Below the pieces are notes generated by a model that worked only from the letters and a program-made list of their open reading frames with translations, ran no database searches and was not told where the DNA came from. A program made the translations under genes and the position numbers. A stretch of 64,000 nucleotides of DNA from Flectonema sp. DT1601. Taxonomy: Eukaryota. Shown here one piece after another: positions 9,337 through 54,414 of this stretch; position 1 is the first letter of the stretch; every line of letters starts with the position of its first letter. The DNA lies in NCBI GenBank assembly GCA_964019425.1, contig OZ025793.1:1240001-1304000 (forward strand), read 5' to 3'.

Positions 9337-9585
9337 ATGTTTATTGCAATTAGTAAACTTAATTAACATTAGTTGTATGATATCTTAAATCCATTCGGTT
9401 CGTTTCTAAGAAGTCACTTACACTGAATTCAGTTTTAATTTTCAAAAGTGTCGCATCTTACGTTCGAAGAATAATTATTTTAATTTTCTCACAGGAAACA
9501 TGTGAAGAGCCAGTTTCTAGTAATAGTCAATCTGGTTGTTGATGTTGTTGACGTCATTTTGAATAACAGTTATCAAAAAAGTAAA

Positions 9586-26600: not shown

Positions 26601-28603
26601 ATCTGCAACAGAACCAACTGAGCAAGATACACTAACCAGAGACGATGACGATCTGCCTGACTTCTTAAAACCTTCGCCATCAAAGGACGCAAAGCTGCCG
26701 GAGTTCTTGAAACCAAAACCGAAACCGAAGCCCGTCTCGGATATCGATTTGGGTGACGAGCTTCCGGATTTTCTAAAACCGCAATCACAACGACGCGATT
26801 CTCAAAGAGATGACCCACCAGAGTTTATTAAGAATGATCCGCATAAGCTTCCGGATTTCTTACAGCCACCGTCTGATGTGATAAAAACTGTTAAAGAACA
26901 GTCTGAAGAAAAGACAGAAGACAAAAACCTACCGGACTTCTTGAAGGGTGCAGGAGTACCTCCGAGGGAAGTTCCTGCGGCGGGTTCTTTATTTGAAGAG
27001 GAAACTGATTTACCGGAATTCTTGCAGCAGGGGAAAGCTCCCCCAACTGATTTCGGGAGCACCTCATCAAGGGATGATAAACCGTTTGGCGAGTTTGGTG
27101 TTCAAGCCAACCCCACTATTCCACCGGAATCAAAGAGCACCCCTCCGTACACTCAGAAGCAGGACGACAGCGATTCAGATTTGCCTGAATTTCTGCGTGG
27201 CTTTAGTAAGAATTTGGAACGCACCGAACAAAAGCTTCCTGAGTTTCTTCGTGAAATTGAGTACAAGGAACGCCGTCAACCAGTCCGCGACCAATACTCA
27301 CCACCAGAATATGTTAAAGACTATCGCTACCCACTGACTACTGGTCTTTCAACTGAAAAGACTTCTGGCATAGTTGTGTTGGACGCAATTACCTGTGAGC
27401 CTAAGGACGGAAAGTCTTGGGAAGGAGTGAAAGGAGCGATCTCGTGTCACAGGGGGAAAGTTGCTTTTGGAGTAGAAATTCTGTGGGGAAGACTCGCAAG
27501 AGTTGGATGGAGTGCTGAAGGCTCATCGCTTACATTGGGAAGTGACTCTAAATCATTCGGCTACGGTGGAACTGCTAAGAAATCTCACGATGACAAATAC
27601 GAAGACTATGGAATCACTTACAGTGCTGGTGATATTGTTCATTGTTTGATAGACTTCGATGCAAAAGAGATTTCTTTCACTGTTAACGGAGAAAATCAAG
27701 GAGTTGCATACACTATTCCACCAGGTATCAGGAATTCGTCTTTCACTCCTCATGTTTTGACGAAAAGTGCTCGTCTGAGACTCTTCTTTGGCGATCAAAA
27801 ACAATCACCTCCTGACGGTATGTCACTCGTTACTTTTATCTATTTTGATGTTTTGTATTTTTGTACGGCAACTTTAATTATATCACTGGACTTGTAGAAA
27901 ACATGAATCCCAACACAGGATACGAATGGATAAGCACTGCTGGTAGTAAAACAGTAACACAACGTGTTGTGGATATTGGTAAGCAGAAGACATGCGCACT
28001 ATGTGGGCAGAGTCGGACACAACGGGACATGGAAGAGATGGGAGGTGGAAGTGGATTTTTTAGGTGTCAAGATGGCATGCAGAATGACAAATGCTCTGCG
28101 GAACGTCTCGGAAGGAGGGAAATCTCTGAAACACACACCCCCGTCGAAAAGAAAGAGAGGCCAATCGTTGAGATTACTGAAGCAGGTAAATTTGCTGAAC
28201 GCGCAGCGAACTCAATGTCGAGATCTTGGCAACGTTCGAAACCCACAAAATCAGGCGGAAGTGGAACATCTTGGAGAGACCGCGCATCGAGTATGTAATA
28301 ACATAACATTTCCAAAGGTAGTTAGTACATTATTTATCCACTAAATCAGGTTCCTCATCTGCGGTAGCAAAGCAACGATGCCGAGAATGTTGGACACTGG
28401 TCCCTGAATCGGAACTACTAACTGAAGGCAATGGTATCTTTTACTGTGACAGTAACAAGCCAAAGCCGTGCAGGTATGTCTCAATAATGTACCCGTTGTG
28501 ACACCCGTTGTAACAATTTCAAGAAATAATAAACAGCGAAAAGAGTGGAGAAGAAATAGCGAAGGAAACGAAGGACTTCACGCGATCAATGGTAGGCTGG
28601 TAG
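23689..28603 (+). CDS. repeat-rich protein with SPRY domain (hnRNP-U/DDX1 type) and two C-terminal Cys4 fingers; introns 27818-27918, ~28291-28349, ~28474-28536
   Basis: RVGWS...LGSDSKSFGYGGTAKKSH...YGITYSAGDIVHCLIDF; in-frame splicing gives PPDGYEW; CALC..C..C and CREC..C..C. Confidence 0.8.
24850..26330 (+). repeat. complex coding tandem repeat (IDNSDDDLPDFLKPQ core with alternating spacers)
   Basis: ATCGACAACTCTGATGACGATCTTCCTGACTTCCTGAAGCCTCA recurs more than ten times. Confidence 0.95.
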
Positions 28604-32682: not shown

Positions 32683-32812
32683 AGGGAGAATAAGGCCTTT
32701 CGACATCAGTTTCTTGAAACTTAATTTTCGGTATTCAGTGTTTGTGCTTGTGCTTGTTGCTTGTCAGCAGGTTAAATTTCATTCTTTAACAGTTCAAAAA
32801 AATAGAAAAAAG

Positions 32813-32885
32813 TGGTCACAATGGGGCTCGAACCCATGGCCAATGGCTTATTAGACCAACGCTCTACCGACTGAGCTATGCGACC
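32813..32885 (-). tRNA. tRNA-Ile (anticodon AAT)
   Basis: Minus strand reads GGTCGCATAGCTCAGTCGGTAGAGCGTTGGTCT-AAT-AAGCCATTGGCCATGGGTTCGAGCCCCATTGTGACCA; cloverleaf with one anticodon-stem mismatch, followed by a T6 terminator. Confidence 0.9.
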
Positions 32886-33389
32886 TGTATTCAAGAAAAC
32901 TGTTTTTTTTTTTCTGGTTACACTCGTCTGTGCTACCAAACTCTTTGTTTTTGTTCTTTTCACTTCTATGTTTTGTCTTTCTTTAATACTTTCTTTTTAA
33001 CTTAAGTCTGACAAATTGGAAAACACGGGAAACATAGGTAGGCTCCGCCTGAGGACGTAAGAAGAGCGGCAACGGAAAAAATAAATGGTCACGCGTCCTT
33101 GAAATTGGATACATGAAGCTAATTCGGTTGCCATTCCTACCATCGATAAGGAAAACAAAGAGTCGAGCATATAACTAGAGCGGTGGTCAAAGACCACTTG
33201 AACAGCCCGAAGGCCTGCCCTCAAGAGAAATTTATAAGGAGAATAGGAGAAGAAGGAGACAGGAGTGTTGGATGAGACACTGCTACAACACCGAAGGTGA
33301 TGTGCAGTTACCCAACCAGGAGATGATTGATAATGATGAAAATACTAAAATAATAACAAATTGATATTGGCGACTACATGTCACCTACT

Positions 33390-36300
33390 TTACTTCCAAA
33401 GTCTAAGGTTAGATGTTTGTTCCATCCACCTTATGATCAACGCGAGTGATGGAAGCCACGCCAAAGTGAAGAGAGCTTCAAGGTTAGGAATTTCGTTGGC
33501 AATAATAAGTTCTCGATCGCGATCCCACTTGCCGGTCAGTGTTGAGAAGCCCAGGATTTTGAACCTGGCAGAGTCGAGTTTGGGAGATTGACATCCCTGC
33601 AGCAGGTGAACCTGTGAGGACGGTTCGCCACAAAATGGGCAGTCGATCGTCTTGCGCCAGTTCTGAATTAGCGGGTGACATCCTGTCCGGAAGTTCGCTA
33701 TCCGTATCTCGTCGGCTCTTTCCATCCCAGGAGGGTATTTAACGGAACGGCCTCTGATGAGGTGTTTGTAGCAGGTGTAACCACTCACGTTAAGCAGATC
33801 CTTTTTGATGCAGCGCTTCACATGTGATGATCGCGAGAAGTACGTGCCTTTGACTAGCACAGGTCGGATGTTCTTGTTGTGCGCTGCTTCCTTTGCAAGC
33901 GCGTCAACTTCATCGTGAAACTCGATTCCAATGTGCGAGGGGATGAATTGCAAATGCACTTTCATCTCACACATGCGCAGGTATTCCAGTATCTTGAGGG
34001 ACTCGGTATTCCTCTGTCTGCACCTTCCACCCAGCAGTTCATCCAGAAGGGATTTTGAGTCCGTGAATATCCTCACAGATTTCATTGAACGATCTTTGCT
34101 AAACACTGTTCTCAGATGTCTAGCCGCGTTCTTCAGAGCATGTTGTTCAGCCCTGTAGCTGCAGTCAGCTTGATAAAGCCTAGACGCGTAAGCAGATCGA
34201 AGGCCGCTACGTGACTTGGCAATATGAGCCGCACCGGCCGCGCCGGAAGCAGAGTAGGAGCCATCGCAGTTGATTACCATGTCGACAGGAGGCAACGTTC
34301 CAATGTACGACATGAACTTTTCTTTGTCCACCGCAGGGTTCGCGGACTTCGGAAATCCGCAGCTGTTGCTAATCCTAAGGTTCGTCGGAGATACCCAGGG
34401 TTCCATCGAGTCAGGCTGCACAAGGCACTGGCTTTCACGCTGACTATCAGTGCCAGGGATTAGGCCAGCCCAGTAGCTTTGTGTTGAGGCGAGTCTGTTT
34501 GTATTAGGTATCCAAGTCATGGCTTTATACCGGTAGTACGCAATTTTTGTCTGCTTTTCAATCTGACGTTTAAAAGGATACATGTCAGACTCCCACAACA
34601 GTAACTCTCTTGGCGTACACTTGCTGCATCCAGTAACCAGTCTGGCGACCTTCCTCAGTTCGAAGTCGATGCTGTCAACGCTGCTGCTTATCAGCCAACC
34701 AAAACTGTCAAGCGCATACGAGATTCTCGCGGTTACATAAAGGTTCTTAACCATGTTAAGAGTCTTGTAGTCCAGTTCGTACGGCTGGAGGCACTGCAGA
34801 AGTGATATCCCCCTCTTTAATTCTTCGTGAATCTTGCCTACTTGTTTGTGGAAGGTGAGCCTGTCGTCGATGTGAACCCCGAGGTATTTTACTGAGTCGA
34901 CTATCGGTAACAGAAAGGCAGTTTTGAATATTGTTCTCACAACCATAATGCTGTCCTCACGAACGACGTATTGCAGCATCAAGTTGTCGAGTTCTTCTTG
35001 TGTCTTGATTGGGATTCCTCCAATTTCAAGAATAGTTTCGCCACTTTGAAGCATGGGTCTGGGTGATTTGAGATTGATATGCTTCTCGATGTCACCATAG
35101 TCAAGTTTAAGCATGCGTTCCTCAACAGATCTAGAGAAAAGCAGTTCGCGATTACACGTATCGTTTAGTACTATGCCCTTCGAGCGAACATTCATCTTAA
35201 GCGCACAGGTTTTGGAGACTGATAAGGCCATGTCGTTTTCAAAACACCATTGATCCACTTTGTCGAGTACTAACTGAGCATTCGAAAGAGCTTCTTCCAT
35301 GTTTGATCCTGACACCACACATGCTGTGTCATCCGCATACAGAGCAGACGTCGTTGTTTCCTTCTCTAGTTCCAAAATCTTGCAGAGGTCATCAACGTAG
35401 ATAAGATAGAGAAGAGGACCCAGGATCGATCCCTGGGGAACCCCCTTAGCCAGAGTACGGAATTCGCTAAAGTAACCATTCGCTTCAACTCTAACCTTCC
35501 TGTTTGTAAGAAAGTCTGTGATCCATCTGATAATAACATTCGGAACACCCATCTTTACTAATTTTAATAAAAGTATCTTATGGTTGATCCTGTCAAACGC
35601 AGCAGTAAAGTCGAATGACAAGAACACTGATCTCTTTTCTTCCATGTGGCTCCTTACGATAGCATCTACTAGAACGGTGATCTGCTCGCAGGTATTTCTC
35701 CCCTTTCTGAATCCAGCCTGTAGTGGGCTGAGCGACGAATGTTTTGTGAGCCAGTGCATGAGTCGGTCATACACGAGCCTCTCCGCAAGTTTCCCAACAA
35801 CCGAGGTGAGCGTTATTGGTCTGAAACTCTTTAGTTCATTACGAGGTTTCCCTGCCTTGAACATGGGCTTGATTAGTCCCTGTTTCCATTGGTACGGTAC
35901 TTTTGAAGTCTTCCAGGAAGTGTTAATAATTCTCAAGAGGTATTCCACTGTTGCCGGAGTGAAGTTTTTGATCATCTCATTGTGAACTCCATCAGGTCCT
36001 GCAGCCTTGCGGGTCTTTAGGTTCTTAATCGCAGCTTTAATTTCAGCCATTGTGAAATCACAGCAAATATCTATTTCATTATCACCTTCTGAGAGTGCGG
36101 GGGCCTCTAGCGATAATATTTCCGATTTCGAGACAAACAGGTCCAAGAATGCTGATGGTAGATCGCAGTCAGAGATGTTGTTGACACTGATATCTTTACC
36201 GGCATCTTGCTGCAGTTCTTTGATCTTCTTAAACGCAAAGGCAAAGTTGTTACCCTTGTCAAGTTGATCACGTAGGTGGACACCCTTCGATTTGGTAGAA

Positions 36301-37301
36301 TCAGGGGTTGACGTCTTCCACTTTCGTCTCCGTTTCCCTTTGAAAAGGAGACGTCGACGAATGAATTTAGCCGCCACTTCATGCAGTATGTTGTTAAAGA
36401 GCTTGGCATTCGCAGTTGCATCAACGGAGAGTCTTGATTTTCTAATTCTCTTTTCGAGCATGGTCCCAAAGCAGTTCCAGTCCGTAGACTTGAAGTCCCA
36501 TACAACGCGTTTCTTCGAACCTATCGTGGCCCGTGCAAGTTGGCACATGGGATCCAGTACGGTGTAGAGAGGTCGATGATCTGACCCATGTTTATTATCT
36601 TCTTCAATTGCACTAAATTCTTCAAGAACCATCGAGTTTGAAAAGAATACTACATCTGGCGAGGTACCACCCCCCGGGACGTCAGGAAAAGGCCTTGTGA
36701 TTGACCCCATCTTGTTAGCAACCAGTAGATCATTTTGAGCTGCCCATGCATGTAGAGTTGAACCTGCTCTCGTCGATTTAAGTGACCACACCGGATGATG
36801 GGCATTAAAGTCACCCGCGACGATTGCTTTCGTTGAGACTGGAAGATCTGACTCTCTGATCATGCATCCCGGGGGAGCATAAACATTGATGATGTCAATC
36901 TTTCCACCTATGTTGACCTTCACGACCTCGACATCATTTAAGTGTGGCGGAAGCTCCATGTTCAAACGCTGCTGAGTGTGGCATTTTTTCACCATAGAAA
37001 TAACCCCTCCACCTCGTGTTGCCCTATCATTCCGATAGGTGAAATAGTCCGTGTGCGAAATTACATCATTCGTCCAAGTCTCCTGTAGGCACAGTACGTC
37101 AGGCGCATAGGCATTAAGCAGCTTGTGAATATAAGCGCCTTTGTTCCCCATCGATCGACAGTTCCAGCTCAGTAGAGATATGAGAGAGTTGTCAGGGCCA
37201 GGGTTGCGTTCGACGTCGCCTGCCTTTAGCAGCAGTTCACGAGCCGTATCCTTTTCCACAAGTGAGTTGGTCGGACTGAGTTCATCCTCATCGTCATCTA
37301 G
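33390..37301 (-). CDS. A1 ORF2: acidic linker, 2A peptide, AP endonuclease, RT, RNase H, C-terminal CCHC
   Basis: GDVERNPGP; SWNCRS, LQETW, GDFNAH, SDH; GVPQGSILGP, YADD; DGS, FTDS, HIGIEFHDEVD; CPFC..H...C. Confidence 0.95.
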   Translation of the reverse strand, partial: LDDDEDELSPTNSLVEKDTARELLLKAGDVERNPGPDNSLISLLSWNCRSMGNKGAYIHKLLNAYAPDVLCLQETWTNDVISHTDYFTYRNDRATRGGGVISMVKKCHTQQRLNMELPPHLNDVEVVKVNIGGKIDIINVYAPPGCMIRESDLPVSTKAIVAGDFNAHHPVWSLKSTRAGSTLHAWAAQNDLLVANKMGSITRPFPDVPGGGTSPDVVFFSNSMVLEEFSAIEEDNKHGSDHRPLYTVLDPMCQLARATIGSKKRVVWDFKSTDWNCFGTMLEKRIRKSRLSVDATANAKLFNNILHEVAAKFIRRRLLFKGKRRRKWKTSTPDSTKSKGVHLRDQLDKGNNFAFAFKKIKELQQDAGKDISVNNISDCDLPSAFLDLFVSKSEILSLEAPALSEGDNEIDICCDFTMAEIKAAIKNLKTRKAAGPDGVHNEMIKNFTPATVEYLLRIINTSWKTSKVPYQWKQGLIKPMFKAGKPRNELKSFRPITLTSVVGKLAERLVYDRLMHWLTKHSSLSPLQAGFRKGRNTCEQITVLVDAIVRSHMEEKRSVFLSFDFTAAFDRINHKILLLKLVKMGVPNVIIRWITDFLTNRKVRVEANGYFSEFRTLAKGVPQGSILGPLLYLIYVDDLCKILELEKETTTSALYADDTACVVSGSNMEEALSNAQLVLDKVDQWCFENDMALSVSKTCALKMNVRSKGIVLNDTCNRELLFSRSVEERMLKLDYGDIEKHINLKSPRPMLQSGETILEIGGIPIKTQEELDNLMLQYVVREDSIMVVRTIFKTAFLLPIVDSVKYLGVHIDDRLTFHKQVGKIHEELKRGISLLQCLQPYELDYKTLNMVKNLYVTARISYALDSFGWLISSSVDSIDFELRKVARLVTGCSKCTPRELLLWESDMYPFKRQIEKQTKIAYYRYKAMTWIPNTNRLASTQSYWAGLIPGTDSQRESQCLVQPDSMEPWVSPTNLRISNSCGFPKSANPAVDKEKFMSYIGTLPPVDMVINCDGSYSASGAAGAAHIAKSRSGLRSAYASRLYQADCSYRAEQHALKNAARHLRTVFSKDRSMKSVRIFTDSKSLLDELLGGRCRQRNTESLKILEYLRMCEMKVHLQFIPSHIGIEFHDEVDALAKEAAHNKNIRPVLVKGTYFSRSSHVKRCIKKDLLNVSGYTCYKHLIRGRSVKYPPGMERADEIRIANFRTGCHPLIQNWRKTIDCPFCGEPSSQVHLLQGCQSPKLDSARFKILGFSTLTGKWDRDRELIIANEIPNLEALFTLAWLPSLALIIRWMEQTSNLRLWK

Positions 37302-38960
37302 TCAGTTGAGATCAAAGTCCGAATCGTTACTTTCCATTTCTACGTCACGGTTTTTATCACTATCCTGCTTAGCAGCAGATTCGGTGGGCGGTGTTGTTGT
37401 TTGTGCTGTTGCTGGTGCTGGCGTTGGTGTTGGTGCTGATGGTGCTGGCGCTGGTGTTGGTGCTGATGTCGGCTGCTGAGTTGGCTGTTGTGGTTGAGGA
37501 GTTGTTTTTTGTCTCTTCAGGGTTCCCGTTAGTTTTTGAGCCGCGTCGCCTGGGTTGTAGGTTGGGCCTAGCGGTTTTCTGTCAGTTCGTTTAACTTCTT
37601 TGTTTATCACAAGGTATTCATTAGTACCTATGCTTATGAAGTTGGGCGGTTGAGATTTCGCAATTGCAACAATTGTAGTACTCCCTCCTTTATGGAAAGA
37701 AGCAACAACTGTGTGTTCCCAGTTGTGTGAGGACTTCAAGAAGTCGCTGATCTGCGCTGTCGAGTACTTACGAATCGCCATCGAATTTATAACAAACCTG
37801 TCGCCCGAGGGCAGTGCAGGCTTGATTGCCGCGTTGAGCTTAATGCTGACCCTGATATTACAGTCAGGGTGGACTCGGAGTCCAAAACAGCTTTTAAACC
37901 TGCACATGTAGAATTTTCCTTTGAATTCATCAAGTGCAGAAGTCTTGGACTTCGCTGCCAGGAAGCCAAGGTCGTTTTTGAATTGCAACGTTGGCCAAAC
38001 GTCACTTCCGTTCGACCAACTCGGGTTTCTGAAAAAGACATTCTTGGGTTTGTCAGTTTCGGGTTCGCTGTTGTTGTATTCCAGAACCTCGTGTACTTGG
38101 TTTCTGGGGACTCTGAAAGCCATCGAGGTGTGGGACTCGTTCTTTCTGTAGCTAAAGGGGTCCGCCTTTATCTTCAATTTCTTTAGAATATCGGTCGTTT
38201 TGACGGTCAATTCTTTCTCAGCTGATTTACCCCAGTCTTGGATGAATAGAACTGGGTTGGGAGTTGGAATCTGGTGGCTAGTTGCTGCTTTAGAAAAGTC
38301 GTCACCAAATACGTGCGTGTAAAATACGCGCCTGATCTCGCAGACGCCACCCTTTTTTATCACCGGTAATGCTACTGGAACGGTGCTCTTTGTGAGCGGG
38401 ATTTTGCTGATAGCAGCCCAACGGCCGCTCTTCTTTGTTTGGCGGAGTGCTTCTAAGTCTAGCTTCGAACGAACTAAAACAAGACCAGAGGTAAGGTTGT
38501 TTGTAGCATTAGCTGCTACGTCGTAACTGATGGTGGCCACAGCGCCTGCCCACGCACCGTGAATGTGCCACTCCGGGTAGCTTGCTTTTGCCTTTCCCTT
38601 CGTGGTTTGATTGTCCTTCATTGCTGTCGGTATCGGCAATGAGAACGGCTTCGTACTCGTTTGTTGATTAGAAGCTGTAGATGCTCCTGTAGTTGGTTGG
38701 TTGACACCTGTAGTTGAGGGTGTCGTCGCTTCTGCTGCCGTCGTCGCGGTCGCTTCCGTCCCACCACTCCCATCGAGTGTGTCCGGTGTCCTCCTCTTCA
38801 TCTCCGGGTTCCCACCTTCTGACCCAGCTACGAATTGAACGATCTCCATTAGGAGATTTGCCACCCTTCTTTCCTTCTCTTGCTCCGGGATCCCGTCTTC
38901 TCCCACTATCTTCAGGAGGTTTATTGCCTCCGATACCAACCTCTTCAGGTTGTCTCTCAT
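37302..38960 (-). CDS. A1 ORF1 (552 aa from first ATG), ending in TGA-CTAG
   Basis: Open frame; its C-terminal half is conserved in copy A2. Confidence 0.85.
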   Translation of the reverse strand: MRDNLKRLVSEAINLLKIVGEDGIPEQEKERRVANLLMEIVQFVAGSEGGNPEMKRRTPDTLDGSGGTEATATTAAEATTPSTTGVNQPTTGASTASNQQTSTKPFSLPIPTAMKDNQTTKGKAKASYPEWHIHGAWAGAVATISYDVAANATNNLTSGLVLVRSKLDLEALRQTKKSGRWAAISKIPLTKSTVPVALPVIKKGGVCEIRRVFYTHVFGDDFSKAATSHQIPTPNPVLFIQDWGKSAEKELTVKTTDILKKLKIKADPFSYRKNESHTSMAFRVPRNQVHEVLEYNNSEPETDKPKNVFFRNPSWSNGSDVWPTLQFKNDLGFLAAKSKTSALDEFKGKFYMCRFKSCFGLRVHPDCNIRVSIKLNAAIKPALPSGDRFVINSMAIRKYSTAQISDFLKSSHNWEHTVVASFHKGGSTTIVAIAKSQPPNFISIGTNEYLVINKEVKRTDRKPLGPTYNPGDAAQKLTGTLKRQKTTPQPQQPTQQPTSAPTPAPAPSAPTPTPAPATAQTTTPPTESAAKQDSDKNRDVEMESNDSDFDLN

Positions 38961-39018
38961 AATTGCTTTTTCCTGTGAAACGTACCCACTGATTCTTACC
39001 AATATTAGGTTGCGAAAT

Positions 39019-39034
39019 CAATAAAGTACAGAAA
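39019..39034 (-). other. spliced-leader remnant at the 5' end of A1
   Basis: Reverse complement is TTTCTGTACTTTATTG, the 3' 16 nt of the Leishmania/Diplonema-type SL exon. Confidence 0.85.
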
Positions 39035-41755
39035 ACTGACGGTATTGGTTTCAACCAAACTTCTTATCGGAAAACGCGTTCTTGCCGGGAAAACATCCTA
39101 TATGTTACGGACAGACTTAGATTTCTTAAACACCAAAAAAAGTCAGCGGCCCTTGTTCTTCTTGATATCGAAAAAGCTTTTGATAGTGTGAACCATGATC
39201 TTCTCCTTCAAAGGATGGTAGATCTTGGAATACCAAAACATTTTATAGCCTGGATTCAGGCCTTTCTTAAAAAACGAAGAGCAGCGGTTGTTGTTAATAA
39301 TGAAAAAGGTTCTTACCACAATGTTTATTCTGGCGTTCCACAAGGAACAGTTTTGTCGGCTCTACTTTTTACTCTGTATATTGAAAAAGTCGCAGAAAGA
39401 CTAGATATTACGGTTGCTAAGTATGCGGATGATATTGCTTTTGTAGTTGATGATGAAGGGAAAGGTTTTACTTATCATTTGGCAAAAACGAAATATTTCT
39501 TTAATGAGATTGAAAAGGATCTAAACGAATTAAAATTAAAAGTAAGTTATGAGCCTGACAAAACAAAACTTGTGTATTATCCCTACTCCCCAAATTCCCC
39601 ACTACAAACACCTTTCACTTTTACTTCAAATTTAACAAAAAATATTGTTCCATGTGTTGATAGCGCCAAGCTTCTTGGGGTGATCCTTGATAACAAGCTC
39701 GATTGGAAACAGCATATCTCGTATATTTGTAGAAGAGTTAATCTTCGCTTAAGGTATCTGAAGCTTGTCGCATCAAAAGCATGGGGACAGTGTACTGCAA
39801 CTTTGCGTGAGGTGTATGATTTGTATATTCGACCTGTCATAACAAACTCGTGTGAAGCTTTTTATCCTGAAGTTAGGTATAAAAAGATTCACATGGACAG
39901 GCTTCTCTCTTTACACCTTAGGGGTGCGTGCTATGTCTTAGGTGCCTTACCACCAACAAGGGAAACAAGAGATAAGATCTTTTTTGAGGCACAACAACAA
40001 AGTATCAACACCCATTTGAGACTTGAAACTGGTAGATGGTTCGCCAAAATGGCGCGAATCACGTCCCCTTTATTAAATGTCTTTATTCCACCTGAAAGAA
40101 TATCCTCAACACCCATTGATTCTTTTACTCGTTTAGGAATGAATGTTCTGAAAGAACACAACCTTCTATCACTCAGTTTTGAGAAATATCCCATTTACGT
40201 TCATCCTCCATGGAGTTTTTCAAATGATTTCAATGTTTTTAAACCAGAAATGCATGTTAGAAAAAAAAAAGACAAAAAGAAAAATAAAAAAGCCTGTGAA
40301 GCTGTTCTTAATGAAATAAGGAAAGATTATGAACCAGTCTTAGAGGTATATACCGATGGTGCCGTTGTTGAAGAACGCGGTGCTGCGGGTGTGTACATCA
40401 TAGACAGCGAAGGAAATGAATTTCTCACAAACAAAAGTGAAGCAGGAATAATCTGCACCTCTTTTAGGGCTGAAATGATGGCGATCAAAAACGCTTTTGT
40501 TTTACTTTTTAAGGAATTTGAACCGCCGGAAAATGCGTCAGTTTTATTTGTGTCAGACTCCTCCAGTGCCTTGATGGAACTGGAAAAAGGGGGAACAAAA
40601 CAGAAAACGAGACTAGGAAGCCGCATCTGGCAGTTTATTGAATTTTTCAACAATAAATTCAAAACAAAGTTTATTTTCCAGCATGTCTTTTCTCACTGTG
40701 GTATTGTCGGAAACGAAGAAGCAGACAAACTAGCCCAAAACATTTCATTAAAAAAAGATGAAGAAACCCTTTTAAAACAAAAAAAAGTTCCCATAGACTA
40801 CAGCACCCATGTAGCTAAACTAAAACACAGAATAAAAGAAAAATTTGACCCCCGTCCTTTCCCATCTGAAACTGAAAGAGCGGAAGAAATTCTGATTTCA
40901 CAACTCAGAATTGGCGACTGTAAACAAACACAAGGGAAATGTCCTAGGTGCAGAGAAAAAGACTCTGTAGAGCACCTGTTAGCAAAATGCTCAAAGTACA
41001 GAAAAGAGAGGAGGATGTATCTCCAGAAAGACTCTCTAACACAAGAAGAGTTAAAGGATTGTCTTTCCACTGTACAAGGACTAGAGAATGTTTTTCTTTT
41101 TATGTCATCTGCAAGAAGATATGTTTTTCCAGAAAAAGAAAAGAAAAAAGAAAATTTGAGTCAGGAAACAAAGAAAGAAAATGAAGAAAACGTTATCCTT
41201 CAACCCACACTTTTCAATACTGTGATTCAAAACTCACAACTGACTTGATTTCTCAAGCTTCCAAATTAACCAAAGTAGCACCTACACCATGGGGATGGTC
41301 TGATTGTTGATTGACTGATGGGCCGATATAGATTGGACACAGATCGAGAGTTTTTGAGAGATCTTAGATGAAAGTCCGCACCTTTCAGGCCATCCCCAAA
41401 AAGCACATAGCAGCTACAGCTATGTCAATTCAAATTGCGACGAGCTGCAACTTCGACATGAAGTTTTTCGTTATTGTTCTTACCTTCTCCACATATTTAC
41501 ATATGTGATAAGTATAAGTCATATCTTACGATTGACAATTCCTCCCCATAAATAAATTTCTTTTTATTATTTTATTTTACACCTGCCTTACTAACTTGGG
41601 GAGAAAGAAAGGAAGAACAATGGGCCTCTTATGAGGTGGGCAATTGCCCTGGACCCACATTAAATGTACGCGTGTTTTGCGTCAGCCCGTTGCTGTAGAA
41701 AAAGAAGAGACAGTTTCAGGTAGTAATGAAAAAAAAAAAAAAAAAAAAAAAAAAA
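39030..41755 (+). mobile_element. non-LTR retrotransposon family B, copy B1 (5'-truncated inside RT; RT-RNase H-CCHC open to 41248; 3' UTR; poly(A))
   Basis: GVPQGTVLS, YADD, YTDGA, HCGIVGNEEAD, CPRC..H...C; poly(A) run of about 27 nt; near-identical to B2. Confidence 0.93.
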
Positions 41756-42053: not shown

Positions 42054-45000
42054 TTTTTTTTGGTTACACTCGTCTGTGCTACCAAACTCTTTGTTTTTGT
42101 TCTTTTCACTTCTATGTTTTGTCTTTCTTTTATACTTTCTTTTGGCTTAAGTCTGACAAATTGGAAAACACGGGAAACATAGGTAGGCTCCGCCTGAGGA
42201 CGTAAGAAGAGCGGCAACGGAAAAATAAGTGGTCACGCGTCCTTGAAATTGGACACATGAAGCTAATTCGGTTACCATTCCTACCATCGATAAGGAAAAA
42301 ACAAAGAATCGAGCATATAACTAGAGCGGTGGTCAAAGACCACTTGAACAGCCCGAAGGCCTGCCCTCAAGAGAAATTTATAAGGAGAATAGGAGAAGAA
42401 GGAGACAGGAGTGTTGGAAGAGACACTGCGACAACACCGAAGGTGGTGTGCAGTTACCCAACCAGGAGATGATTGATAATGATGAAAATACTAAAAAAAT
42501 AATAACAAATTGATATTGGCGACTACATGTCACCTACTTTACTTCCAAAGTCTAAGGTTAGATGTCTGTTCCATCCACCTTATGATCAACGCGAGTGATG
42601 GAAGCCACGCCAAAGTGAAGAGAGCTTCAAGGTTAGGAATTTCGTTGGCAATAATAAGTTCTCGATCGCGATCCCACTTGCCGGTCAGTGTTGAGAAGCC
42701 CAGGATTTTGAACCTGGCAGAGTCGAGTTTGGGAGATTGACATCCCTGCAGCAGGTGAACCTGTGAGGACGGTTCGCCACAAAATGGGCAGTCGATTTTC
42801 TTGCGCCAGTTCTGAATTAGCGGGTGACATCCTGTCCGGAAGTTCGCTATCCGTATCTCGTCGGCTCTTTCCATCCCAGGAGGGTATTTAACGGAACGGC
42901 CTCCGATGAGGTGTTTGTAGCAGGTGTAACCACTCACGTTAAGCAGATCCTTTTTGATGCAGCGCTTAACATGTGATGATCGCGAGAAGTAAGTGCCTTT
43001 GACTAGCACAGGTCGGATGTTCTTGTTGTGCGCTGCTTCCTTTGCAAGCGCGTCAACTTCATCGTGAAACTCGATTCCAATGTGTGAGGGGATGAATTGC
43101 AAATGCACTTTCATTTCACACATGCGCAGGTATTCTAGTATCTTGAGGGACTCAGTATTCCTCTGTCTGCACCTTCCACCCAGCAGTTCATCCAGAAGGG
43201 ATTTTGAGTCCGTGAATATCCTCACAGATTTCATTGAACGATCTTTGCTAAACACTGTTCTCAGATGTCTAGCCGCGTTCTTCAGAGCATGTTGTTCAGC
43301 CCTGTAGCTGCAGTCAGCTTGATAAAGCCTAGACGCGTAAGCAGATCGAAGGCCGCTACGTGACTTGGCAATATGAGCCGCTCCGGCCGCGCCGGAAGCA
43401 GAGTAGGAGCCATCGCAGTTGATTACCATGTCGACAGGAGGTAACGTTCCAATGTACGACATGAATTTTTCTTTGTCCACCGCAGGGTTCGCGGACTTCG
43501 GAAATCCGCAGCCGTTGCTAATCCTAAGGTTTGTCGGAGATACCCAGGGTTCCATCGAGTCAGGCTGTACAAGGCACTGGCTTTCACGCTGGCTGTCAAT
43601 GCCAGGAAGGAGGCCAGCCCAGTAGCTTTGGGTTGAGGCGAGTCTGTTGGTACTAGGTATCCAAGTCATGGCTTTATACCTGTAGTACGCTATCTTGGTT
43701 TGCTTTTCAATCTGACGTTTAAAAGGAAGCATGTCCGCTTCCCACAGTAGAAGTTCTCTCGGTGTGCACCTGCTGCATCCAGTAACCAGCCTGGCAACCT
43801 TCCTCAGTTCGAAATCAATACTATCAACGCTGTTGCTTATCAACCAACCAAAGCTATCGAGCGCATAAGAGATTCTCGCAGTTACGTAAAGGTTCTTGAC
43901 CATATTTAGCGTTTTGTAGTCAAGATCATACGGTTGAAGGCATTGAAGCAGAGATATTCCCTTTTTCAGTTCTTCATGAATCTTAGCCACCTGTTTGTGG
44001 AAAGTGAGTCTGTCGTCGATGTGAACTCCGAGGTATTTCACTGAGTCCACGATTGGCAACAGAAATGCGGTTTTAAAACTGGCTTTCACCACCATCACGT
44101 TGTCTTCGAGAACAATATTCCGCAACATCACGTTGTCAAGTTCGTCTTGCGTTTTGATCGGAGTTCCATCAACCTCGAGAATAGTTTCGCCGCTTTGAAG
44201 CATGGGTCTAGAAGAAGTTAAGTTGATACTCTTTTCAATGTCACTATAGTCCATTTTGATAACGTTTTCCACAACAGATCTGGAAAATAGTAATTCGCGA
44301 TTGCAGGTGTCGTTGAGAATCGTATCCTTCGTACGGACTTTCATCTTAAGAGCACAGGTCTTTGAGACCGACAGGGCCATGTCGTTGTCAGAACACCATT
44401 GATCCACTTTATCAAGTATTATTTGAGCATTTGAAAGAGCTTCTTCCATGTTATGTCCAGATACTACACATGCTGTATCATCCGCATACAGAGCAGACGT
44501 CGTTGTTTCCTTCTCCAGTTCCAAAATCTTGCAGAGGTCATCAACGTAGATAAGATAGAGAAGAGGACCCAGGATCGATCCCTGTGGAACCCCCTTAGCC
44601 AGAGTACGGAATTCGCTAAGATAACCATTCGCTTCAACTCTAACCTTCCTGTTTGTAAGAAAGTCTGTGATCCATCTGATAATAACATTCGGAACACCCA
44701 TCTTTACCAATTTTAATAAAAGTATCTTATGGTTGATCCTGTCAAACGCAGCAGTAAAATCAAACGATAAGAACACCGATCTCTTTCTCTTCATGTGCAT
44801 CCTTACGACGGCATCTACCAAAACGGTGATCTGTTCGCAGGTATTTCTCCCCCTTCTGAATCCAGCCTGTAGTGGGCTGAGTGACGAATGTTTAGTGAGC
44901 CAGTGCATGAGTCGGTCATACACGAGCCTCTCCGCAAGTTTCCCAACAACCGAGGTGAGCGTAATGGGTCTGAAACTCTTCAGCTCATTTCGAGGTTTTC

Positions 45001-47290
45001 CAGCCTTGAACATAGGCTTGATTAAACCTTGTTTCCACTGGTACGGTACTTTTGAAGTCTTCCAAGAAGTGTTAATAATTCTCAAGAGGTATTCCACTGT
45101 TGCCGGAGTGAAGTTTTTGATCATCTCATTGTGAACTCCATCAGGTCCTGCAGCCTTGCGGGTCTTCAGGTTCTTAATCGCTGCTTCAATTTCAGCCATT
45201 GTGAAATCACAGCAAATATCCATTTCATTATCACCTTCTGAGAGTGCGGGGGCCTCTAGCGATAATATTTCCGATTTCGAGACAAACAGGTCCAAGAATG
45301 CTGATGGGAGATCGCAGTCAGAGATGTTGTTGACACTGATATCTTTACCAGCATCTTGCTGCAGTTCTTTGATCTTCTTAAACGCAAAGGCAAAGTTGTT
45401 ACCCTTGTCAAGTTGATCACGTAGGTGGATACCCTTCGATTTGGTGGAATCTGGAGTTGACGTCTTCCACTTTCGTCTCCGTTTCCCTTTGAAAAGGACA
45501 CGTCGTCGAATGAATTTAGCCGCTACTTCATGCAGTATGTTGTTAAAGAGCTTAGCATTCGCAGTTGCATCGTTGGAGAGTTTCGATTTTCTAATTCTCT
45601 TATCGAGCATATTTCCAAAGCAGTTCCAGTCCGTAGACTTGAAGTCCCACACTACGCGTTTCTTAGAACCTATCGTGGCCCGTGTAAGTTGACACATGGG
45701 ATCCAGTACGGTGTAGAGAGGTCGGTGATCAGATCCATGTTTATTATCTTCTCTAATTACAGAGAATTCTTCCAGAATCATCGAGTTTTGAAAAAATACT
45801 ACGTCCGGCGAGGTACCGCCCCCCGGGATATTAGGAAAAGGCCTTGTGATTGACCCCATCTTGTTGGCTACCAGTAGATCATTGTGTGCTGCCCATTCAT
45901 GTAGAGTAGAACCTGCTGGCGTCGATTTTGATGACCACACCGGATGATGGGCATTAAAGTCACCCGCGACGATTGCTTTCGTTGAGACTGGAAGATCTGA
46001 CTTTCTGATCTTGCATCCCGGGGGAGCATAAATATTTAAGATGTCAATCTTTCCACCTATGTTGACCTTTACAACTTCAACATCATTTAAGTGAGGCGGA
46101 AGTACGATATCAGAACGCTGCTGAGTGTGGCATTTCTTCACCATAGTAATAACCCCACCACCCCGTGTTGCCCTATCATTCCGATAGGTAAAATAATCCG
46201 TGTGTGAGACTACATCTTTTGTCCAAGTTTCTTGCAGGCACAGTACGTCAGGCGCATAGGCATTGAGCAGCTTGTGTATGTAGGCACCTTTGTTCCCCAT
46301 TGATCGACAGTTCCAGCTTAGTAGTGATATGAGGGAGTCGTCAGGGCCAGGGTTGCGTTCGACATCGCCTGCCTGAAGCAGCAGTTCACGAGCCGTATTC
46401 TTTTCTGTGAGTGAGTTGGTCGGATTTAAATCATCGTCATCTTCATCTAGTCAGTTGAGGTCAAAATCCGAGTCATCGTCTTCCATTTCAACATCGCCGT
46501 TCTTATCACCTTCTTGTTTAACAGCAGATTTAGTGGGTGGTGGAGCTGATGCTGGTGTGGGTGCTGGCGCTGGTGTCGGTGCTGCTGCCGTCTGATGTGG
46601 TAGCTGAGTTGGTTGTTGTGGTTGAGGAGCTGTCTTCTGTCTCTTCAGGGTTCCTGTCAGTTTTTGAGCCGCGTCGCCTGGGTTGTAGGTTGGGCCTAGC
46701 GGTTTTCTGTCACTTTTCTTAACTTCCTTGTTTATCACAAGGTACTCATTGGTGCCTATGCTCACGAAGTTGGGAGGCTGCGTGTTTGAAATCGCCACAA
46801 TCGTAGTGCTTCCACCTTTGTTAAACGATGCGACCACTGTGTGCTCCCAGTTGTGAGAGGACTTCATAAAGTCGCTGATCTGCGCTGTTGAGAATTTCCG
46901 TATCGCCATTGATTTTATAATGTACCTGTCACCGGAAGGCAGTGCAGGTTTGAGTGACGCGCTTAACTTAATACGCACTTCAGTGTTGCAGTCGGGATGA
47001 ACTCGGAGTCCATAACAGGTTTTGAACTTACACAGGTAGAATTTACCTTCGAAACCTTCCAGTATTGATGTCTTGGACTTTGCTGCCAAGAATCCAAGAT
47101 CGTTATTGAATTGAAGAGTTGGCCAGACATCGCTTCCATTTGACCAGCTCGGGTTTCTGACAAATACATTCTTAGGTTTGTCGGTCTCCGGGTCGTTATT
47201 GTTAAACTCCAGAATCTTGTGTACTTGGTTTCTGGGAATTCTAATAGCCATTGAGGAATGTGAATCATTTCGTTTGTAACTGAAAGGGGC
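42054..47290 (-). mobile_element. family A copy A2 (5'-truncated in ORF1; ORF2 intact)
   Basis: Same 3' UTR and terminus as A1; ORF1 C-terminal half, TGA-CTAG, 2A and ORF2 all present. Confidence 0.95.
42539..46450 (-). CDS. A2 ORF2 (linker, 2A, APE, RT, RNase H)
   Basis: In frame with the ORF1 stop; RELLLQAGDVERNPGP. Confidence 0.93.
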   Translation of the reverse strand, partial: LDEDDDDLNPTNSLTEKNTARELLLQAGDVERNPGPDDSLISLLSWNCRSMGNKGAYIHKLLNAYAPDVLCLQETWTKDVVSHTDYFTYRNDRATRGGGVITMVKKCHTQQRSDIVLPPHLNDVEVVKVNIGGKIDILNIYAPPGCKIRKSDLPVSTKAIVAGDFNAHHPVWSSKSTPAGSTLHEWAAHNDLLVANKMGSITRPFPNIPGGGTSPDVVFFQNSMILEEFSVIREDNKHGSDHRPLYTVLDPMCQLTRATIGSKKRVVWDFKSTDWNCFGNMLDKRIRKSKLSNDATANAKLFNNILHEVAAKFIRRRVLFKGKRRRKWKTSTPDSTKSKGIHLRDQLDKGNNFAFAFKKIKELQQDAGKDISVNNISDCDLPSAFLDLFVSKSEILSLEAPALSEGDNEMDICCDFTMAEIEAAIKNLKTRKAAGPDGVHNEMIKNFTPATVEYLLRIINTSWKTSKVPYQWKQGLIKPMFKAGKPRNELKSFRPITLTSVVGKLAERLVYDRLMHWLTKHSSLSPLQAGFRRGRNTCEQITVLVDAVVRMHMKRKRSVFLSFDFTAAFDRINHKILLLKLVKMGVPNVIIRWITDFLTNRKVRVEANGYLSEFRTLAKGVPQGSILGPLLYLIYVDDLCKILELEKETTTSALYADDTACVVSGHNMEEALSNAQIILDKVDQWCSDNDMALSVSKTCALKMKVRTKDTILNDTCNRELLFSRSVVENVIKMDYSDIEKSINLTSSRPMLQSGETILEVDGTPIKTQDELDNVMLRNIVLEDNVMVVKASFKTAFLLPIVDSVKYLGVHIDDRLTFHKQVAKIHEELKKGISLLQCLQPYDLDYKTLNMVKNLYVTARISYALDSFGWLISNSVDSIDFELRKVARLVTGCSRCTPRELLLWEADMLPFKRQIEKQTKIAYYRYKAMTWIPSTNRLASTQSYWAGLLPGIDSQRESQCLVQPDSMEPWVSPTNLRISNGCGFPKSANPAVDKEKFMSYIGTLPPVDMVINCDGSYSASGAAGAAHIAKSRSGLRSAYASRLYQADCSYRAEQHALKNAARHLRTVFSKDRSMKSVRIFTDSKSLLDELLGGRCRQRNTESLKILEYLRMCEMKVHLQFIPSHIGIEFHDEVDALAKEAAHNKNIRPVLVKGTYFSRSSHVKRCIKKDLLNVSGYTCYKHLIGGRSVKYPPGMERADEIRIANFRTGCHPLIQNWRKKIDCPFCGEPSSQVHLLQGCQSPKLDSARFKILGFSTLTGKWDRDRELIIANEIPNLEALFTLAWLPSLALIIRWMEQTSNLRLWK

Positions 47291-47357: not shown

Positions 47358-48313
47358 TTTTTTTCTTTTTTTTGGTTACACTCGGGGGCGTCATAGTGCA
47401 GTGGATGGGGTGGTGCCCCCGCACCCAATCGGCCTCGGTTCGAACCCCGCTGTACGCACCGCGCCTCACAGCGCAATCAGTTTCCGTGTCGCATCCCCCA
47501 TTGTCTCGAAAAAGTGAACGGCCACCCAGTAAGGGCAGCGCCTAAGCAATTATAGTAGTAACAAAAAGAAGGAGAAACACAGTAGTGAAACACTCAAAAA
47601 AAAAAAAAAAAAAGGTTACACTCGTCTGTGCTTCCAGACTCTTTGTTTTTGTTCTTTTCACTTCTTTGTTTTGTCTTTCTTTTATACTTTCTTTTGATTT
47701 AAGTCTGACAAATTGGAAAACACGGGAAACATAGGTAGGCTCCGCCTGAGGACGTAAGAAGAGCGGCAACGGAAAAATACATGGTCACGCGTCCTTGAAA
47801 TTGGACACACGAAGCTAATTCGGTTACCATTCCTATCATCGATAAGGAAAAACAAAGAATCGAGCATATAACTAGAGCGGTGGTCAAAGACCACTTGAAC
47901 AGCCCGAAGGCCTGCCCTCAAGAGAAATTTATAAGGAGAATAGGAGAAGAAGGAGACAGGAGTGTTGGAAGAGACACTGCGACAACTCCGAAGGTGATGT
48001 GCAGTTACCCAACCAGGAGATGATTGATAATGATGAAAATACTAAAAATTATAACAAATTGATATTGGCGACTACATGTCACCTACTTTATTTCCAGAGT
48101 CTAAGGTTAGATGTCTGTTCCATCCACCTTATGATCAACGCGAGTGATGGAAGCCACGCCAAAGTGAAGAGAGCTTCAAGGTTAGGAATTTCGTTGGCAA
48201 TAATAAGTTCTCGATCGCGATCCCACTTGCCGGTCAGTGTTGAGAAGCCCAGGATTTTGAACCTGGCCGAGTCGAGTTTGGGAGATTGACATCCCTGCAG
48301 CAGGTGAACCTGT
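47358..48313 (-). mobile_element. family A copy A3 (short 3' fragment) interrupted by a SINE
   Basis: 3' UTR and last ~75 codons match A1/A2. Confidence 0.9.
47385..47613 (+). mobile_element. tRNA-derived SINE with poly(A) and 11-bp TSD
   Basis: A box TAGTGCAGTGG, B box GGTTCGAACCC, A18 tail; GGTTACACTCG at 47374-47384 and 47614-47624. Confidence 0.85.
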
Positions 48314-51300
48314 CCTGGAAAATGGAAAGGGAAAAAAGGAAAGAAAGGAACCAAGGGAGAGAGCGGTAAAGGAAAAAAAACTGTTTTGTCACCACCGTCA
48401 ACCTCAGTAACCCCGTCAATAGAACAAAACGGACATTTTAAACCAGCTAAAATTATTATTAGATGCACAAACAAAGCATCTAACAACAAAGATCATTGGC
48501 ACTTTTCTAGCCGATGATCCGAAAAAGCAAGCAGAAGCTTGGGATGCGGAATTAAACCCGCAAGAAAAAGAAGGTTTTCAACAAGGATCGATGGACGAAG
48601 ACATCGATCTTGTGAAGCTGAAGCTGGACAAAGAAAACAGTGATAGTGATGACAACACAAAAAGAAAAAAAGAAGAACCTCCGAATTGACTGTTTCCTTA
48701 TAATTTTTATCTTTTTTATTTCTCGAACCTTCTTTTGTGTGGAGACATCCACCCGAACCCGGTCCACAAAAAAAGCGGGAGGAGATTGTTAAAGTGGAAG
48801 GAGGAGAACGGTAAGGAAGTCTCACAGGCGGTAACAAGCACACACGAGAAAAATATTGTGCCTGAAACCACCACGGAGCCTACCATGGACCATGACTCAG
48901 ACAAGATGACGTCAGACTCGAGCTCGATCTGCTCCCCACCGACACAAGAAGACCGCCCCCCCAGTAGGGATGTGTGGGTGCGGAAAGGAGATACCGCAAG
49001 CAGCGATCAAGAATCCGGTGAAACACCCGACGAAGGGATGGTGTGATAGGTGTGGAGAGCGGATCGCGAAGGGAACACGGGTAGTCATGTGCGTGAAGTG
49101 TGACCACGCTGAATGCTGCGGATTGTTGGAGAGATCGCGGCGTGGGAAAGAGAAGAGGAAAAGGAAATCACGGGGATCGCGATCGAAAAACGATGCCATG
49201 TGAGAAGCATGAAACGGAAAGTGAATGAACGGAAAAAATTAAATGTAAAGAAGTGAACTTGTAAAAAATGTAAAGAAGCAAACATGTGAAAAGAAAAATG
49301 AAAAAAAAAAGAAGAGTGAAAAGGAAGACAGAGTTGTATGTAAACTGTATGTAAATGTAAGAAGAAAGAAAAAACACGCTGGAAGTGGGAGTGCAACCAT
49401 CAGCGCAAACACAACCACAAATATTGTTTTTTTTCCTTTTTCTTTTCTTCGCTTCGGCGACAGATATGGTAGGACCTAGAAAACCGGCCCAAAACTTGTG
49501 TTGCAGTTTATCTTTTTAGCGCACACTCATGTAACATAAGGATCGCTGGTTCCGAGGGTTTGCTCTCCTGCCATACTTGCCTCTCACCTGCCTCAAAAAA
49601 AAAAAAAAGCAAAAAAACAGTGAGTTGAGAATTGTATCTTTTAATGTTTGTGGTCTCAAGTCGAAATCCGACGAAATAACTTTTTTTTACAAAATATAAA
49701 ACCTGACCTATTCATGGTTCAGGAAACTTTGTTAAAGGATAACGACGAAACCATTAATTTTAATGGGTACAAGTGTCTCAGAAGAGACCGGAGAATTCCG
49801 GTAAAAAAAAACGCACCCGTCAGAGGTGGTGGATTGGCAATTTTTTACAAGAACAGCCTAAGCGTGACGTCACAGCTGTTGCACAACACAGCCAAGACTG
49901 CACTGAAGTCCAGGGCATTTTGTGTCAAATTCAAAACAAACTGTAAGGGTATACAACGTGTACAGACCACCGGTAAGCCAATCAACCTCTGATAGGTCCC
50001 CCTCTTTTGATATGAATAGTATTTTTCTTTTTAATAAAAATGATAAAGTAGTTATCGCGGGGGATCTTAACGCAAGGCATCCACTCTGGGACCCGAGAGA
50101 CGAGTCAAACACAAATGGCCATGAAGTCTCGACTTTTCTAAACAATAACCAGTTTGAATGCTGCAACGTTAAGGAAATCCCCACAAGACCAAAATCAAAC
50201 ACTTCTCCTGATGTTGTTCTCCAAAAAAACTGTGATATTGGCAACTGGACGACGCTCGAATCTCTATCAAGCGATCATGTACCAATGTATTTTTCTCATT
50301 CTTTTTTTTCGGATTCGATAAACAGAGCGAACGGTGCAACGGTTTTTTCTTATAATTGGAACAGGGCACTGTGGCCAAACTACAGCTCCCACCTCGAAAG
50401 GGTGGCGAAGCGACTTGAAAAGATTCAAGATAACCAGAAATTATCAATGGAATTCATAAGAGAATTAAAAAATGCGCTACGGATCTTTGTACCAAGGATT
50501 TATTTGAAAGGAAAGTCACCAAAGAAGTGGTGGAACACGACGGTTGCATCTAAGTTTCATGAGTTCAACGAGTCACATTGTGACAAACGGGATGATCTTA
50601 CAGATCTGTCGCAACAGGGAAAGTCAATTTTTACATCTTTAAAAAAAGAACTCAAAAAAACAGTCGTTGATGCCAAGAATCAACAGTTTAAAAAAAGCCT
50701 TAAAAAAGACAAGTCTATTATTGAAGCTTTTGAAGACATAAGAGGCCTTGATGGAAGATCAAGGCTTAAAGAAATTCGAGAAATCACCTGTGGTGATAAA
50801 CTTGTTACAGATGATGTGAAAAAAGCATCAATTTTCAATAATCAATTTTTACAACGTGTTGGTAACATCGAAGAAAAAACAAAGACAAAGAAAATAGAAA
50901 CAGACCCTTCTGATTTTACACCATTTACACAACATGAACTTAGAATCCAATTGAGAGGAATGGCTCTGGAAAAGAACTCACCAGATGGCGTTCAAGGTAT
51001 TCTTCTTAACCATTTGGGACCTAGAATGCTAAACATTTTACTTAAGATTTTTAACAATTCGTGGAAACATTCTGTTGTCCCGAGTGATTGGAAAGACACA
51101 CACTGGATCCCTGTTTTAAAAAAAGGAAAACCCCCAAACCTCCCCTCTTCATATAGAATGATCTCTCTCACCCCTTTTATTGCGAAATTGATGGAAAGAA
51201 TGGTGAAGGAACGTCTTACGTATTTTATGCAATCACCGAATGAAAAGAAAACTGACGGTATTGGTTTCAACCAAACTTCTTATCGGAAAACGCGTTCTTG

Positions 51301-54386: not shown

Positions 54387-54398
54387 TGTACTTTATTG
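54387..54398 (+). other. spliced-leader remnant upstream of the 1177-aa ORF
   Basis: TGTACTTTATTG ends 16 nt before the ATG at 54415. Confidence 0.7.
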
Positions 54399-54414
54399 AA
54401 ACCAACACATTCCA

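Follow-up and report, generated by a model that had tools for sequence, protein, structure and literature searches.

Putative UGA readthrough followed by a 2A StopGo peptide at the ORF1–ORF2 junction of a LINE from Flectonema sp. DT1601

A stretch of 64,000 nucleotides (nt) from the diplonemid Flectonema sp. DT1601 (GenBank assembly GCA_964019425.1, contig OZ025793.1, positions 1,240,001 to 1,304,000; hereafter the window, whose own coordinates are used throughout) contains a full-length long interspersed nuclear element (LINE), A1, on the minus strand. Its first open reading frame (ORF1) ends in AAC TGA CTA G, and the same frame continues through a 2A peptide into the endonuclease domain of the second (ORF2). 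Here it is proposed that ORF2 would be reached by readthrough of the UGA and its protein (ORF2p) released by ribosome skipping (StopGo) at the 2A, both from a single RNA bearing a spliced leader (SL). The window also has a second copy of the same family A (A2) and a long copy of a distant family B. The features, read from the sequence and from predicted domains, are as follows.

32903..39029, minus strand: full-length LINE copy A1, from SL remnant to poly(A), with a 9-bp direct repeat on either side
39030..39038, no strand: target-site duplication, 5' side, which doubles as the start of a family-B fragment truncated at its 5' end
32894..32902, no strand: target-site duplication, 3' side (9-bp repeat)
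39019..39034, minus strand: 3' end of a euglenozoan SL exon, 11 nt within A1 and 5 nt in common with the target duplication
38961..39018, minus strand: A1 5' untranslated region (UTR), 58 nt, without ATG
37302..38960, minus strand: ORF1, 552 aa, ATG at 38960, terminal Asn
37298..37307, minus strand: predicted leaky-stop context AAC TGA CTA G, the same in copy A2
37251..37301, minus strand: acidic linker of 17 codons, open in frame, without in-frame ATG
37194..37250, minus strand: class A 2A/StopGo peptide DTARELLLKAGDVERNPG/P, with related tested peptides in the supplement of PMC12338488
33390..37196, minus strand: ORF2p from the 2A proline, 1268 aa, stop TAA (Pfam PF03372, PF14529, PF00078)
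32903..33389, minus strand: A1 3' UTR with an 11-nt poly(A) (32903-32913)
46343..46456, minus strand: A2 junction, AAC TGA CTA G, linker and NTARELLLQAGDVERNPG/P
48684..48761, plus strand: parallel junction of family B, AAT TGA CTG, 17 codons and GDIHPNP in the same frame

The ORF1 protein (ORF1p) has predicted tandem ferredoxin/RRM-like domains and a disordered acidic tail (structure model, mean predicted local distance difference test score (pLDDT) 63.5). ORF1 matched no Pfam family, and Foldseek gave no match to its fold at E 0.001. With VIA the best Z was 7.6 (root-mean-square deviation 12.3, 144 aligned), and single RRM and ACT domains shared a score near Z 7, which as modelled indicates only a common arrangement. 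The Atlas matches, at 0.93-0.94, were all clusters. The tandem ferredoxin-like domains would be compatible with an RNA-binding ORF1p without being proof of it. ORF2p has, in order, an apurinic/apyrimidinic-type endonuclease (APE), a reverse transcriptase (RT), RNase H-type acidic motifs and a C-terminal Cys/His knuckle. The RNase H acidic motifs were located in A1, with PF00075 not reported at E 0.001; this family is listed for the close ORF2 homologs P0003, P0004 and P0007. No protease domain was detected in A1.

At the junction, read on the minus strand, AAC occupies 37307-37305, TGA 37304-37302, CTAG 37301-37298 and the 2A Gly/Pro codons 37199-37194. The first-pass annotation had described this ORF1 end correctly, leaving its strand unstated, and was equally right that the frame runs through the 2A to the APE domain with neither stop nor ATG; the peptide that it quoted is exact. 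The stop-to-stop frame 33390-37301 comprises 1303 codons and is in frame with the ORF1 frame 37302-39017. UGACUA is the hexamer of type II readthrough (PMC13517186), and A1 and A2 both have the UGACUA(G) context, while family B has UGACUG, a natural variant in an alphavirus according to the same source. An open, conserved frame without alternative start, also expected for type II readthrough, is found in A1 and A2 but not in every relative. For human genes with UGACUAG a readthrough of at least about 1.3% is given, and the codon preceding the stop is described as influencing readthrough (PMC13517186). As for the 2A, A1 and A2 have GDVERNPGP, which corresponds to the class A core GD(V/I)ExNPGP, preceded by the leucine run of the class A description (PMC12338488) in the form ELLL(K/Q)A. 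Skipping activity of the A1 peptide is predicted from this canonical motif. A tested peptide, LLLLAGDVERNPGP, is one residue off the A1 2A and identical to the 2A of the sister family P0002, and had a skipping score of 0.54 in HEK293T cells (PMC12338488 supplement).

The context is rare in the window. TGACTAG accounts for 5 of 6139 stop triplets on both strands (0.08%, two LINE junctions counted in) and AAY-TGA-CTR for seven, three of which are LINE junctions. The joint pattern of TGACT followed by a 2A has two matches, against none in 100 shuffles, and none of the 18 other long plus-strand ORFs checked terminates in TGA-CTR.

Copy A2 has an intact ORF2 (42539-46450) and an ORF1 that is 5'-truncated near 47290; its target duplication was not found. 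It is 89.7% identical to A1 over 5262 bp of nucleotide sequence, with the same stop context and the same GDVERNPGP. The ORF1 proteins share 74% identity, far below the RT region (94%), and the linkers differ by substitutions but by neither indels nor stops. The proportion of nonsynonymous differences (pN) is 0.049 in codons 18-36 (the 2A), 0.177 in codons 1-17 and 0.058 in APE, and the protein sequence of the 2A core (codons 27-36) is unchanged. The family-A junctions that were read, those of A1, A2 and a junction-spanning contig of 151 bases from run X1, show neither of the two signs against recoding named in the first-pass annotation, loss of the TGA and linker frameshifts. Run X1 was the one sequencing run listed as containing the sequence, with a small share of it, and no RNA run was listed. 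The contigs of this run cover the A1 element in patches, and the 151-base contig adds no independent lineage because its 16 listed differences all equal A2. In family B, 88 open codons ending in EEPPN precede AAT TGA CTG. Its RT is 32% identical to that of A1 and forms a long branch in the tree, and its ORF1 tail is unrelated to any fetched protein. Also in family B, a Cys/His-rich domain lies between the 2A-like motif and APE, and many frameshifts fall in homopolymer runs. A 700-bp 3' fragment of family A (47614-48313, minus strand) stands head to head with the long family-B copy (48314-53234, plus strand). Nearby, a short element at about 47365-47560 (minus strand) shares its terminal 10 bases and poly(A) with family A, is otherwise different and has a B-box-like palindrome; it is a candidate short interspersed nuclear element or sister-family 3' end.

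Relatives of ORF2 were found in five ENA clusters (101, 37, 42, 74 and 26 members) and in four transcript families of Flectonema neradi. In a quick RT tree, with 122 of 123 RT sequences and no named Ingi references, these nine groups form with A1 and A2 an 11-row clade with a support of 100, placed among RNase H-bearing LINEs. Searches with ORF1 recovered seven families, of which two are fragments, with identities of about 24-63%. Six of the seven, including two of the three from Flectonema, have a terminal Asn, at the end of tails that vary in length and are unalignable. Within the last 15 positions nothing besides this Asn is common to more than four of the seven families, and Asn makes up 4.3% of the tails. 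Among the 43 listed members (from 51 in three clusters), 36 end in Asn and the other seven stop early, ahead of the tail. One Trinity gene includes both the Flectonema ORF1 P0229 and the ORF2 P0003. No fused ORF1-ORF2 protein of 967-2760 aa was present among 2795 candidates, which is weak evidence.

The ends of A1 show how its RNA was processed. The 5' remnant is identical to the 16 nt at the 3' end of the SL consensus rows tabulated in PMC3795323, and this 16-mer has one match in the window against 0.01 expected. Both the SL and the relatives with a species name fit a diplonemid host. Because A1 begins with the SL remnant and contains both ORFs, the copied RNA was trans-spliced once, before ORF1, and carried both ORFs uncut. 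The first-pass idea that internal trans-splicing would cut the template thereby receives direct support, with the remnant 58 nt before ORF1 in a copy that contains both frames. In Diplonema, essentially all mRNAs are SL-spliced out of polycistronic precursors (PMC10161547), and by analogy with this SL biology the A1 RNA would be capped and its ORF1 translated first. Rfam had no match in 36800-39400, which covers the junction and the 5' end of A1. With regard to the 77-nt 5' promoter/hepatitis delta virus (HDV)-like ribozyme that is a hallmark of the Ingi clade, A1 begins with the SL remnant and the 58-nt leader, and any promoter located before the splice site would have been lost by splicing. 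The 9-mer of the target duplication occurs at 32894, at 39030 and within family B at 51246. A tRNA-Ile(AAT) gene (32812-32885, minus strand) begins 8 bases past the 3' target duplication, and A1 and the 5' end of the family-B fragment (39030) meet at one spot upstream of this gene, a single case of a possible insertion preference for tRNA-gene flanks.

A1 and A2 have no in-frame ATG from the stop to codon 51, which lies past APE motif I (SWN, Asn47), and the motif I Asn is required for catalysis. Met51 is not conserved among relatives, and the Flectonema ORF2 P0007 likewise starts past motif I. The only ATGs near the stop are three in the +1 frame, at +7, +13 and +19, so that the arrangement of SART1, an overlapping or adjacent stop and in-frame AUG, is not present. 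These out-of-frame ATGs would capture scanning ribosomes, which argues against scanning reinitiation.

Taken as a whole, the sequence favours readthrough followed by StopGo, because the leaky context is present in both copies, the linker is open in frame, there is no usable ATG, the terminal Asn is conserved in relatives and a parallel junction occurs in a distant family. It is therefore proposed, with a probability of about 0.65, that ORF2p is made by UGA readthrough and StopGo release from one SL-bearing RNA. Both A1 genes would be translated in one frame of this RNA, ORF1 in a cap-dependent manner. Most ribosomes would terminate at the UGA and yield ORF1p, and a minority, perhaps a few percent, would pass UGA-CUAG. 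At the 2A, 35 codons past the UGA, StopGo at NPG/P would give a 588-aa extended ORF1p and a separate 1268-aa ORF2p beginning at proline. The outcome would be a high ORF1p:ORF2p ratio out of one uncut RNA, itself the template, with the 2A taking the role that a protease has after readthrough in alphaviruses and gammaretroviruses. The broader claim, that diplonemid LINEs of at least two deeply diverged families use an undescribed Asn-UGA-CUR readthrough coupled to StopGo on a single SL-capped RNA, is held with evenly divided confidence.

Several observations, in this paragraph and the next, weigh against the proposed readthrough and release. The first-pass interpretation, which drew on the leaky context and the 2A, is partly supported. 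No stable hairpin was found 3' of the family-A stop in folds of 60-200 nt of A1 and A2 (z from -0.65 to +2.1, local folds), a structure that is described as needed only conditionally (PMC13517186). In two Flectonema ORF2 families an in-frame Met would give the whole APE without readthrough, in P0004 26 residues ahead of NPGP and in P0003 just ahead of motif I. The called starts of P0181 and P0002 also precede motif I and are possibly non-ATG; the P0002 start comes one codon after the codon that opens the A1 linker, and there TGA CTA G would offer a gene caller GTG. The 2A-like motif of P0004 is GNVEVNPGP, and the tick peptide that resembles it, MLLLSGNVEVNPGP, scored 0 (PMC12338488 supplement), while LLLVSGDVERNPGP, another GDVERNPGP peptide, scored 0.08 in human cells (PMC12338488). 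Among the ORF1 families, the Flectonema P0212 is the one without terminal Asn, ending in Gln-Gln; with CAR as its last codon it would match the context of type I (tobacco mosaic virus-like) readthrough. The ENA clusters probably derive from the same assembly as the window, which would make them not independent. The relatives were compared as proteins, which bears on a conserved residue before a stop and not on the identity of the stop or its 3' bases; these were read in the window copies and the 151-base contig alone. The five codons around the stop are invariant between A1 and A2, but this is weak alone because 129 of 214 identical ORF1 residues likewise keep their codon. Finally, family B is a single long, frameshifted copy in which the final G-P of the 2A-like motif is out of frame, and its linker is pyrimidine-rich ahead of an AG at +56.

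The layout was also searched for elsewhere, with the pattern TGACT(R), a gap and a 2A core, the core lying 45-105 nt beyond the stop and other spacings being missed. Viral contigs had 43 pattern loci with 0 of 44 placements in frame, and metagenome contigs had 101 loci with 14 of 102 placements in frame, none of them behind a long ORF. Nine of the in-frame metagenome placements have the TGA as nearest stop, with upstream frames of 3-81 codons, and the six read in detail contain no intact ORF1-ORF2 element. The prokaryote genome contigs gave five pattern loci, none with an intact layout, and none of 37 ORF1 candidates in viral contigs was confirmed. A metagenome LINE (L057, minus strand, near 3001-3098) has AAT TGA CTA in frame with GDIHPNPGP before APE; this LINE is broken, its upstream frame has just 54 codons, and a look-alike (L138) suggests a frameshift artefact. 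So far the layout seems restricted to these elements from protists. The literature searched, which left most subscription papers, Repbase and preprint supplements outside, yielded no LINE in which readthrough precedes a 2A; as far as this literature goes, the 2A in LINEs is already known and its coupling with readthrough is the new part.

Termination at the UGA could also be followed by an AUG-independent or near-cognate restart within the linker, with the 2A trimming only a short ORF2p leader. Reinitiation is documented in SART1 and proposed for mammalian L1 (PMC5972666), and possible restart codons, ACG at codon 19 and CTG at codons 23 and 24, are in frame and kept in A1 and A2, although the three out-of-frame ATGs are nearer the stop than any of these, the GTG of codon 15 is missing in A2, and a restart at codons 19-24 gives at most 17 residues ahead of the skip site. 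The CTG immediately after the TGA of family B and the P0004 Met upstream of its 2A-like motif would also suit a restart, which nevertheless leaves the leaky context, the conserved Asn codon and the open frame unexplained. The A1/A2 junction has no overlapping stop-start, and the spacers of rat L1, by contrast, contain two in-frame stops (PMC2241872). On balance a restart is rather unlikely. A second trans-splicing event in the linker or early ORF2, which would give ORF2 its own mRNA and leave the uncut RNA as template and ORF1 message, is improbable, for all that SL-splicing of polycistronic precursors yields essentially every mRNA in Diplonema (PMC10161547). Both copies retain AGs at +5 and +135, and the second of these follows a stretch with 67% pyrimidine and lies 18 nt ahead of the ATG of Met51; however, splicing at +5 makes an out-of-frame ATG the first, and splicing at +135 yields a protein without APE motif I that starts at a Met not conserved. 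The pyrimidine tract of family B ahead of its AG also codes for a Phe/Leu run, as before the 2A of CR1-36_BF. A second splicing would furthermore make the 2A pointless, and the inserted A1 copy derives from an RNA spliced before ORF1 only.

The remaining alternatives concern what follows or surrounds the stop. Readthrough could be real with a 2A that mostly fails or dampens, so that an ORF1-ORF2 fusion functions or output is further throttled. The activity of LINE 2A-like peptides varies from none to high (PMC3708506), and of the ORF2p-linked ones tested 59% lowered protein abundance (bioRxiv 10.64898/2026.06.17.732966); set against these, the fully canonical core, its protein sequence unchanged between the copies, and the score of the peptide one residue off make a weak 2A highly improbable in A1. 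Least credible is that the UGA encodes selenocysteine or that its context is an inherited accident without role. The UGA is in frame and the related copies have a common history, but no match to a selenocysteine insertion sequence (SECIS) family was obtained with Rfam in the 3' UTR region 32700-33500 at E 1, a weak test. For an accident the context is rare by chance, it has a parallel in a distant family, and the terminal Asn is kept at the end of a tail that is otherwise unalignable.

Compared with known elements, a 2A before APE has been reported from L1Tc/Ingi and from several LINE clades of animals, mostly in elements that lack ORF1 (PMC3894237; PMC3708506). In line with the first-pass remark on trypanosome elements, the 2As of Tvingi and Tcoingi likewise end in GDVERNPGP. 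Like L1Tc/Ingi, A1 has APE, RT and RNase H with the 2A directly ahead of APE. ORF1 is lacking in the Ingi-clade 2A elements, as is a stop ahead of the 2A, whereas A1 has a 552-aa ORF1 with homologs, a putatively leaky in-frame stop and an SL-bearing 5' end. L1Tc reportedly uses an internal promoter that gives unspliced RNA. A1 is not classed as Ingi because the single-ORF feature fails, though its ORF2 is Ingi-like. Three CR1 elements have both ORF1 and a 2A and were proposed as intermediates in ORF1 loss (PMC3894237; PMC3708506); these, CR1-26_BF, CR1-53_BF and CR1-1_LG, resemble A1 in having ORF1 plus a 2A in ORF2, with no readthrough described for them in the accessible parts of those reports. 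Two proteins of the pseudoscorpion Cordylochernes also have a 2A between ORF1p and ORF2p domains (bioRxiv 10.64898/2026.06.17.732966) but are described as single predicted proteins without a stop.

The closest working parallel, by analogy, would be viral readthrough with proteolytic release of the polymerase. In alphavirus nsP3-nsP4 (UGACUA/UGACUG) and gammaretroviral gag-pol, as proposed for A1, a leaky stop rations the polymerase, which is freed a few residues on (PMC13517186). These viruses encode a protease and often have a 3' RNA structure, whereas in A1 neither was detected and a 2A is present instead. Known routes to LINE ORF2 include UAAUG coupling and unconventional reinitiation (PMC5972666, PMC5009743, PMC2241872). 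SART1 (UAAUG) and mammalian L1 are like A1 in their bicistronic RNA and in making less ORF2p than ORF1p, the latter being a proposal for A1, which differs from both in that stop and start do not overlap, ORF2 lacks an AUG and the spacer is open in frame. In Cardiovirus, StopGo and -1 frameshifting are likewise two serial recoding events that set a protein ratio, although there StopGo comes before the frameshift (PMC5009743).

Other observations in the window include a second SL-like 11-mer (54388-54398, plus strand), 16 nt ahead of the ATG of an intronless ORF of 1182 codons (54400-57948, plus strand) that has no Pfam match and a repeat-rich C-terminal part. This ORF is possibly a retroposed SL-bearing mRNA; a target duplication was not found at it. 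An ORF of 1404 codons (23683-27897, plus strand) carries dozens of repeats of the DDDLPDFLKP type and, at its C-terminus, a SPRY domain. A PP2C phosphatase is encoded at 9484-10887 (plus strand), its N-terminal part matching BRCT weakly.

By what route LINEs translate their second ORF has long been an open question (PMC3894237, PMC5009743), and what 2A peptides do in LINEs has been debated without being settled. In A1, about 110 bases would set both the ORF1p:ORF2p ratio and the N-terminus of ORF2p without AUG or protease. If true, a LINE, and with it a euglenozoan, would have programmed stop-codon readthrough, amounting to a protease-free form of viral polymerase rationing, and would show leaky UGA-CUA decoding with an effect of the P-site Asn codon far from animals and fungi. 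A1 fits the proposed intermediate between elements with ORF1 and ORF2 and single-ORF 2A elements, and would then be a living one, linking two-ORF LINEs with elements such as L1Tc; it also suggests re-reading LINEs whose ORF2 'lacks a start codon'. The SL remnant, in turn, indicates how a LINE may survive in a host that normally cuts polycistronic RNA to single genes.

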